A DNA stretch of 64,000 bases, taken from IMG/VR virus record IMGVR_UViG_3300010276_000001. The stretch is one strand, 5' to 3'. The position numbers and the translations under genes were made by a program. The DNA comes from a virus. The stretch's first letter is position 1. Every line of letters starts with the position of its first letter. Under the pieces are notes generated by a model. That model saw nothing but the letters and a program-made list of their open reading frames with translations, made no database searches and had not been told where the DNA came from. Positions 237-8,554 of the stretch are shown here, one piece after another.

Positions 237-425
237 TATTTTCCCCTCCTGTAAATTAAAAATTTTGTCGCTCTATGGTGCAAACTAATGTTCGTATAAA
301 AGATTATACTATTTTATAATTTAAATTTCAACCCGAACAAAGGAAAATTTTTTAAATATTTGTAAGAATTTATGAGACTATAAAAGGGAAAATCAATTAA
401 GAAGTATCATAGAAAGGCTGAAAAT

Positions 426-500
426 GTTGCAGCTTGGCAATCATAGGCATTCCTCCCTTAGACCCATAGCTTTGCGTCCTTACCTTTCGATAAGTTTGCC
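426..500 (-). promoter_or_regulatory. cyclic di-GMP-I (GEMM) riboswitch aptamer
   Basis: Minus strand reads GGCAAAC-TTATC-GAAA-GGTAA-GGACGCAAAGC-TATGGGTCTAA...ATGATTGCCAAGCTGCAAC, matching the hallmark GGCAAAC / GNRA tetraloop / GGACGCAAAGC / GGTCTAA elements. Confidence 0.9.
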
Positions 501-636
501 AAAATTAATTTTTTGCATTATCACACTGTAAACAACGTACTTAGTTCAATATATTTACTACGTTTAACAAAGTATTCCCACGTGATAGATTGTTTTTTAA
601 ATCAGATGTTTTAGAAAGAGTTGAAGACAAAAAATA

Positions 637-7451: not shown

Positions 7452-7512
7452 TTTTGGCTGTCTCATCAGTGCTGGTTGCCAACCCAACAGACCGCCGAAG
7501 CGGTTTCGACAA
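7452..7512 (-). ncRNA. type II hammerhead ribozyme with pseudoknot
   Basis: Minus strand: UUGUC-GAAA-CCGC(UUCG)GCGG-UC^-UGUUGG(GUUGGCAA)CCAGCA-CUGAUGA-GACA-GCCAA. All core nucleotides and stems I-III present, GUC cleavage triplet at 7492-7490, loop I UUGGC pairs with downstream GCCAA. Confidence 0.93.
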
Positions 7513-7722: not shown

Positions 7723-7776
7723 TTCCCGTTTCGCCGGAGCTTCCCCGGCTCATCAGCAGGCTATGCCTGGACGGAA
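7723..7776 (-). ncRNA. type III hammerhead ribozyme
   Basis: Minus strand: UUCCG-UC^-CAGGC(AUA)GCCUG-CUGAUGA-GCCGG(GGAAGCU)CCGGC-GAAA-CGGGAA. Complete core; GUC triplet ends at 7770. Confidence 0.92.
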
Positions 7777-7786
7777 TGGCACCGGC

Positions 7787-8296
7787 TTATATTAAAGCCA
7801 GCGCCTCATTGATTGTAATACTGACAGCTTCTTGTCTCATTTCTTTCTTGATAAACCTTGCTAGTTTTATGAAGAACTTTATATCATCTTCGCTGACGTC
7901 CTCTAAGTGAACGCTTGCTATGATTAGATTATCATATACTACCTGTTGCAGTTCTTCACTGTACCAACTACCAAGGCCTTTTTCCAAAGTGGGAACCATT
8001 TCATATTTTTTATAAATTTTTTGAATTACTGTGGATATTACTTTTTTTAACTTCTCTTTGCCTGCTACTTCATTGATGTTATATGTATCAGGAATAAACA
8101 AAGATAAAGTATTAAGTTCTCTGTCCTTTTTTAGTTCGATAAACTCATTGCCGGAAACATTGCTATAAAGTTCACCTGTATCAAAGTTCAACGTTGCGCC
8201 ACCATGTTGTTTTGCAGCTTCTTCAAGATTGTTAACTTTAACTTTGTTTGAAAGGAAAAAGCTGAAATTGAACTTTTTTGAATCAATTTTCTTCAT
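7787..8296 (-). CDS. hypothetical phage protein
   Basis: 169-aa ORF with AAAGGAG RBS, directly after the twister. Confidence 0.75.
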   Translation of the reverse strand: MKKIDSKKFNFSFFLSNKVKVNNLEEAAKQHGGATLNFDTGELYSNVSGNEFIELKKDRELNTLSLFIPDTYNINEVAGKEKLKKVISTVIQKIYKKYEMVPTLEKGLGSWYSEELQQVVYDNLIIASVHLEDVSEDDIKFFIKLARFIKKEMRQEAVSITINEALALI

Positions 8297-8329
8297 TTTG
8301 ATTGATAACTCCTTTCGTTTTAGCTTATA

Positions 8330-8385
8330 CCCTCTGCATTTTTCCAGGCTTGGGACTGGCTGCTACTATGTGACAGGCTGCATTA
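8330..8385 (-). ncRNA. twister ribozyme (type P1-like core)
   Basis: Minus strand: U^AA-UGC-A-GC-CUGU..GCAG-CCAG-UCCCAAGC-CUGG-AAAAAU-GCA-GAGGG. P2 UGC/GCA, P4 CCAG/CUGG, invariant L4 UCCCAAGC and 3' GAGGG match the twister consensus; P1 is weak. Confidence 0.85.
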
Positions 8386-8479
8386 CTTTCCACGCTCTTC
8401 CCTTCCGCTCCCCCTAACCAGCGCCACCGCCTTTGGGGTATGACCCGCATTATGCAGGCTCATCAGGAATTGCGCTTAC

Positions 8480-8497
8480 ATTCAGTTTTCAAGGTTC
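8480..8497 (-). promoter_or_regulatory. boxA-like antitermination element
   Basis: GAACCTTGAAAACTGAAT resembles Firmicute rRNA-operon boxA-region sequences; about 25 nt after the promoter. Confidence 0.45.
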
Positions 8498-8525: not shown

Positions 8526-8554
8526 ATTATACATCCAATGTATGTACATTTCAA
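8526..8554 (-). promoter_or_regulatory. strong sigma-A promoter of the ribozyme-containing operon
   Basis: Minus strand TTGAAA, 17 bp, TATAAT. Confidence 0.8.

Follow-up and report, generated by a model that had tools for sequence, protein, structure and literature searches.

The window analysed here is the whole 64,000-nt stretch of the IMG/VR virus record IMGVR_UViG_3300010276_000001. It holds a prophage with terminase, portal, major capsid, tape measure, RecT-like, and helicase-loader genes, and an HTH repressor-like ORF and a serine-recombinase-like ORF were read from the sequence at its right end. The neighbouring genes were found on contigs of up to 314 kb, and the holders were bioreactor, manure, and digester metagenomes. 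We infer a Firmicutes host from the low GC content, the promoter, and a c-di-GMP-I riboswitch (425-510, minus strand, 76.7 bits). The riboswitch lies at the left edge of the window, which is probably host sequence or the prophage boundary. Comparison with GenBank phages gave no match, and a pattern search of a genome collection gave two chance matches, both without the twister 3' half. Viral-contig searches with the 169-aa protein encoded below the twister alone, the 185-aa neighbour, the 3' twister pattern, or the upstream-RNA pattern gave no matches.

The leader under study is on the minus strand. It begins with a strong Sigma-A-type promoter (TTGAAA-17-TATAAT, 8526-8554, 11 of 12 consensus matches), which is near-identical in L025, L071, and L072. 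A boxA-like antitermination sequence follows (8480-8496); it recurs in at least six related leaders, those of L025, L071, L034, L027, L117, and L139, and we take it to resemble the rRNA leader boxA of Firmicutes. Downstream of it are, in order, a structured RNA, a six-base linker, a twister ribozyme (8330-8385), the Shine-Dalgarno (SD) sequence (8309-8315, assigned from sequence), and the AUG (8296) of a 169-aa gene (7787-8296), which has a weak phrog_3543 match and 87 homologs. A type III hammerhead (7723-7777, minus strand; Rfam 46.4 bits, E 8e-8) and a type II hammerhead (7452-7511, minus strand; Rfam 41 bits, above the gathering score) lie between the next genes of the same operon, giving three ribozymes within 1 kb, and no further ones were found in positions 10001-64000 of the window. 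Run X10 has a 74-base deletion in the 169-aa gene (window 8102-8177), and L068-L070 encode the protein in two pieces, with the upstream twister unchanged in both cases.

Rfam searches and alignment with sister alleles confirmed, at the level of sequence, that 8330-8385 on the minus strand is a real twister-class element with an intact core (L1, P2, P3, P4, L4, and the pseudoknots T1 and T2). Read from 8385 to 8330, it has the type-P1 topology of RF03160. The twister-P1 match spans 8326-8389 with 58 bits and an E value of 2.9e-11, far beyond chance, and twister-P1 was also its best match in the clan. L1 carries the N-A-A of the cut site as U8385 (U-1), A8384 (A+1, the general acid position), and A8383 (the conserved A+2), and the predicted cleavage position is between U8385 and A8384. 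P2 (8382-8379 with 8338-8335) and P4 (8359-8356 with 8347-8344) are each formed by four of four Watson-Crick pairs, and P3 is formed by 8376-8373 with 8363-8360. L4 (8355-8348) agrees with the consensus. The GAGGG segment (8334-8330) provides the general base G8334, followed by an A and the strand of T1 (CCC/GGG), and T2 pairs GC 8378-8377 with GC 8349-8348. The five pseudoknot pairs made from L4 are complementary in all three sister sequences, and they are invariant and so lend no covariation support. Both catalytic residues, all three core helices, and both pseudoknots are thus intact in the window twister, and the initial annotation, which had matched P2, P3, P4, L4, and GAGGG to the consensus, was correct on this point. 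The order of cut site, L4, and GAGGG, together with a closed P3 and the lack of a P5, does not fit the permuted type-P3 or type-P5 topology. An identical sequence was recovered from manure and activated-sludge runs assembled independently, which excludes an assembly error. The element and its sisters score 51-58 bits, and the gathering score of RF03160 is 67.2 bits; therefore a default Rfam scan missed the window twister.

The departure from the canonical form is in P1. The 5' flank GGAAAG (8386-8391) is a single-stranded linker, in which G8386 can give the sole P1 pair, a G-U with U8329; the 3' flank (8322-8329) is unpaired with it beyond U8329. The P1 register reads G-U, A.A, A-U, A.A, that is, one contiguous pair, and shifting the flanks by 0-2 nt produced no longer run. 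When the nested core was held fixed and the whole leader was folded by partition function, pairing of the six nucleotides of the 5' flank with the 3' flank had a probability of at most 0.04. These results agree with the initial annotation that the flanks (GAAAG / UAUAA) barely pair. Some alleles could form a helix that recruits U-1 (G-U with A-Y in the 3' flank), but L072 cannot, and this helix was set aside. In the active state of twister U-1 is flipped out, and such a helix would oppose that state. The canonical type-P1 consensus (RF03160) has a paired P1, which the single G-U pair does not provide; the description of T-variant 2A, namely a conserved core, two A at the cut site, and up to four P1 mismatches, does apply, with two mismatches in four P1 positions. 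Judged by its sequence, the element is best classed as a P1-deficient twister and not as a canonical type-P1 twister, because P1 was listed as essential in the original consensus but was later shown to be dispensable (PMC5408937).

Three sister alleles with differing flanks likewise keep one P1 pair and a conserved core. The L025 allele precedes a 90% identical protein and differs from the window twister in P3, P4, L2, and flanks. The L072 allele has a near-identical core and the same 5' flank, with a 3' flank and a gene unrelated to those of the window. The allele of run X17, known from a single low-depth contig, has the same 3' half as the window, no P3, and a different 5' flank that forms one A-U pair. 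The homolog alignment that the initial annotation had proposed as a check was run on the window, L025, and L072: all 17 core pairs were kept in the three sequences, with two compensatory changes in P4, both in L025, whereas P1 was 41.7% paired and only its core-adjacent G-U was constant. Covariation in this three-sequence alignment was not significant, being reached by 59 of 500 shuffles. The pattern is the one expected from selection on the core alone. Moreover, every combination of 5' and 3' flanks from the sisters gives at most one contiguous pair, so that among the sampled alleles there is no sign of recent P1 breakage by flank swap. The one-pair P1 and conserved core in three sisters with different flanks, and the two compensatory changes in P4, suggest that the loss of P1 is lineage-stable and reflects neither decay nor assembly error. 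The suggestion of a natural P1-less twister therefore holds as a sequence type, given the intact core, the Rfam match, and three sisters without P1.

To place this element among its relatives, phage twisters were gathered from viral contigs with patterns that specify the core and leave the flanks free, and P1 pairs were then counted; the sample consists of the matches listed and is biased by the fixed core letters and by related sequences. Among the matches listed, 99 twisters were distinct, 23 of which had at most one contiguous in-register P1 pair, and 11 of the 99 still had at most one when shifts were allowed; by distinct flank type, the proportion in the same matches was 10/64. Mismatched flanks gave at most one pair in 32%. 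A P1 run of at least three pairs was present in 83 of the 99 listed twisters, compared with about 35% for mismatched flanks. The latter comparison and the count of 11/99 suggest that P1 is under selection in most phage twisters and absent in roughly one in nine among the matches listed. The rarity implied by the initial annotation was therefore not supported: natural P1-mismatched twisters are published (PMC8501958, PMC11662667) and common, at 11/99 among the matches listed here. In the L104, L094, and L118 twisters the normal P1 itself overlaps the downstream SD, which is a possible reason for P1 retention there.

Tolerance of P1 loss is already in the literature, and the P1-less state is not new. 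As the initial annotation stated, an engineered P1-less mini-twister still cleaves; it does so at an almost wild-type rate, which makes P1 dispensable in vitro (PMC5408937), and P1 mutants of the Osa-1-4 twister are robust (PMC5113685). With four P1 mismatches permitted, a search turned up 2060 natural twister variants, bacterial ones included; the tested 2A to 7A variants were active, the 2A rate being twister-like and some variants slower, and the same study called P1-less cleavage inefficient (PMC8501958). About 94% of some 1950 natural twisters tested were active, independently of P1 length, energy, and imperfections, and natural twisters were described as 'essentially impervious' to P1 imperfections (PMC11662667).

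The window twister shares with the type-P1 class (RF03160; Roth et al. 2014, as reviewed in PMC5408937) the element order, L1 UAA, P2, the optional P3, P4, L4, T1 and T2, the general acid A, the general base G, and the position before a phage gene; it differs in having one G-U pair in P1 instead of three or more, and in scoring 58 bits against 67.2. T-variant 2A (Liu et al. 2021, PMC8501958) is likewise a natural twister whose core is intact and whose P1 has up to four mismatches, but these variants were studied in Schistosoma Perere-3 retrotransposons, where target-site duplication gives the 5' P1 strand, whereas the window element is in a prophage leader. The mini-twister env22 without P1 (Kosutic et al. 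2015, as reviewed in PMC5408937) is similar in that P1 is absent and the core alone is expected to cleave; however, it is engineered and truncated, and the window twister has long native unpaired flanks that could misfold. The natural twisters tested by CHiTA (PMC11662667) also had P1 mismatches, and mismatches, bulges, and overhangs did not reduce their cleavage, although most elements of that set had fewer than three imperfections and the window element has a one-pair P1.

We consider the window twister probably active. With somewhat less confidence, we favour the reading that it is an active twister of type-P1 topology whose double-pseudoknot core can fold and cleave on its own, and that P1 was lost for this reason. 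In the twister class, A+1 and the G of GAGGG are established as the residues of general acid-base catalysis, and the window twister would most likely cleave in this way without P1. The transcript from the 8554-8526 promoter would be cleaved constitutively at U8385/A8384. The 5' product would be about 135 nt long, end in a 2',3'-cyclic phosphate, and carry boxA and the upstream structured RNA, while the 3' product would be a 5'-OH mRNA that has the compact twister at its 5' end, 88 nt upstream of the start codon of the 169-aa gene. Together with the two downstream hammerheads, the twister would cut the prophage accessory operon into one- or few-gene pieces with set 5' ends, and its biological role is likely RNA processing of the prophage leader transcript. 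Because pairing is not needed, the flanks would be free to vary, which would suit module shuffling between phages. The cost of folding the nested core in the full leader was 5.3 kcal/mol, and the median for P1-bearing phage twisters was 5.9 kcal/mol. RNase J1 degrades the 5'-OH RNA that glmS cleavage leaves in Bacillus subtilis (PMC3328962); for the 5'-OH mRNA here, stabilisation or a similar hand-over to RNase J1 are both conceivable.

The score below the Rfam gathering cut-off, the usual retention of P1 in phage twisters, and the mosaic flanks of the sisters would also fit a decayed or very slow ribozyme that lost P1 by recombination or drift, the remnant serving merely as 5' structure or being unselected. 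We regard this as unlikely, because the catalytic and pseudoknot positions are intact in all four alleles, P3, P4, L2, and flanks vary without breaking core pairs, and loss of P1 is tolerated in the published experiments.

The conserved multi-stem RNA upstream of the twister (8392-8475, minus strand, 84 nt) directly follows the boxA-like signal, and its conservation extends over these anaerobic-digester phages. Between its closing helix (8475-8472 with 8395-8392) and the twister cut site lie 6 nt. In a six-sequence alignment, 6 of the 18 predicted pairs showed compensatory changes, and a model built from the six sequences found a further copy in L034 (E 7e-7). Copies lie at L025 2819-2916, L072 2353-2450, L032 323-418, L060 2316-2413, L035 1-89, and L034 1918-2017, and those in L032, L035, and L060 occur without a twister. 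No Rfam match was found at E<1. A canonical hammerhead was considered from the CUGAUGA-like start and hairpin, and it was rejected because YAUAC stands where GAAAC is needed; the first letters also vary among homologs, the GAAA strand is absent, and Rfam gave no hit. A pistol was rejected for lack of a downstream pseudoknot partner. We propose the RNA as a candidate undescribed phage RNA motif, a lead separate from the finding of the P1-less twister.

This upstream RNA could act as a switch that gates the twister. With the closing helix formed, 8395-8392 would be occupied, and the twister would fold and cut; without it, 8395-8392 would pair with the 5' strand of P2 and loop out the cut site, and the ribozyme would respond to this change because it lacks P1. 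The competing hairpin of four pairs (-2.2 kcal/mol) appeared in unconstrained folds, and truncation of the upstream RNA raised the core cost from 5.3 to 8.0 kcal/mol (from 5.9 to 10.1 in L025); the conservation of the upstream RNA with covariation points the same way. However, the hairpin is weak and the folding energies take no account of pseudoknots, the upstream RNA is also present without any twister in the three phages named above and so has a role of its own, and the X17 allele has a different junction. Gating is therefore doubtful, slightly more so than decay. The freeing of the competing hairpin by truncation matters for construct design, and it leaves a small chance of natural gating. 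Just as improbable, in our estimate, is a bolder version in which the job of the twister would be to release the 84-nt upstream RNA as a discrete non-coding RNA, whose folding licenses cleavage by occupying the P2-blocking stretch; if true, the locus would hold both a naturally occurring allosteric twister and a phage RNA not described before.

The initial annotation had also offered an alternative pairing near the downstream ribosome-binding site (RBS) as a support of activity, so that a substitute helix would help folding or couple cleavage to translation of the 169-aa gene. Weak long-range pairing between the far leader and the SD was predicted, the SD of the full leader opened 2.7- to 4.5-fold on cleavage, and an anti-SD helix is clear in twisters from related phages, but here this idea is very improbable: the 5' flank, like the SD, consists mostly of purines, so that the two cannot pair, partition-function folding of the leader predicted no flank-RBS helix, a shorter leader reversed the effect (0.7-fold), and L072 has the same twister before an unrelated downstream sequence and gene. 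The predicted change of 0.7- to 4.5-fold for the window copy is small and unstable, and the spread in L025 (from <0.1- to 39-fold by choice of window) is noise of the predictions. The anti-SD twisters are a separate observation. In L071 (2464-2524), L117 (1452-1515), and L139 (about 360-422), a CCUCC that lies 4-5 bases 5' of the cut site is predicted to pair with the downstream gene's GGAGG SD, and cleavage is predicted to free the RBS; the predicted SD opening was 68-fold to >10,000-fold in 11 of the 12 settings and 1.5-fold in the remaining setting, without covariation support. The L071 and window twisters share their promoter and the family of the gene upstream.

The slot occupied by the twister is filled differently before homologs of the 169-aa gene. 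It holds a pistol in L027/L028 (L028 402-476), a type I hammerhead in L042 (2385-2445), read from sequence and fold, and a long imperfect hairpin just before the gene in L029, L035, L036, and L060 (z about -3 to -5), which could be an RNase III site; more distant homologs have the promoter only. Twister, pistol, hammerhead, and long hairpin are thus interchangeable candidate processing elements. In equivalent operons, twister-sister and type-P5 twister ribozymes were seen at L035 695-765, L071 3002-3072, and L072 2942-2997. What may be a twister-like RNA in enlarged or degenerate form, unmatched in Rfam, lies upstream of the long hairpin in L029 (about 2760-2900), L058 (about 745-890), and L027 (from about 2485).

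We conclude that the window carries a real, P1-deficient twister in a ribozyme-punctuated prophage operon, which appears to work like a type-P1 twister and is probably active. The P1-less state itself matters little, as it contributes one more natural case, bacterial and lineage-stable, to a tolerance that was already known; in practice, the Rfam gathering cut-off misses such phage twisters. The upstream 84-nt RNA and the anti-SD twisters are more interesting than the loss of P1. The locus lends itself to testing the unsettled role of ribozymes in phage operons, because the element in the slot differs among the sisters (twister, pistol, hammerhead, or long hairpin) and because one sister allele has an anti-SD in the cut-off piece.
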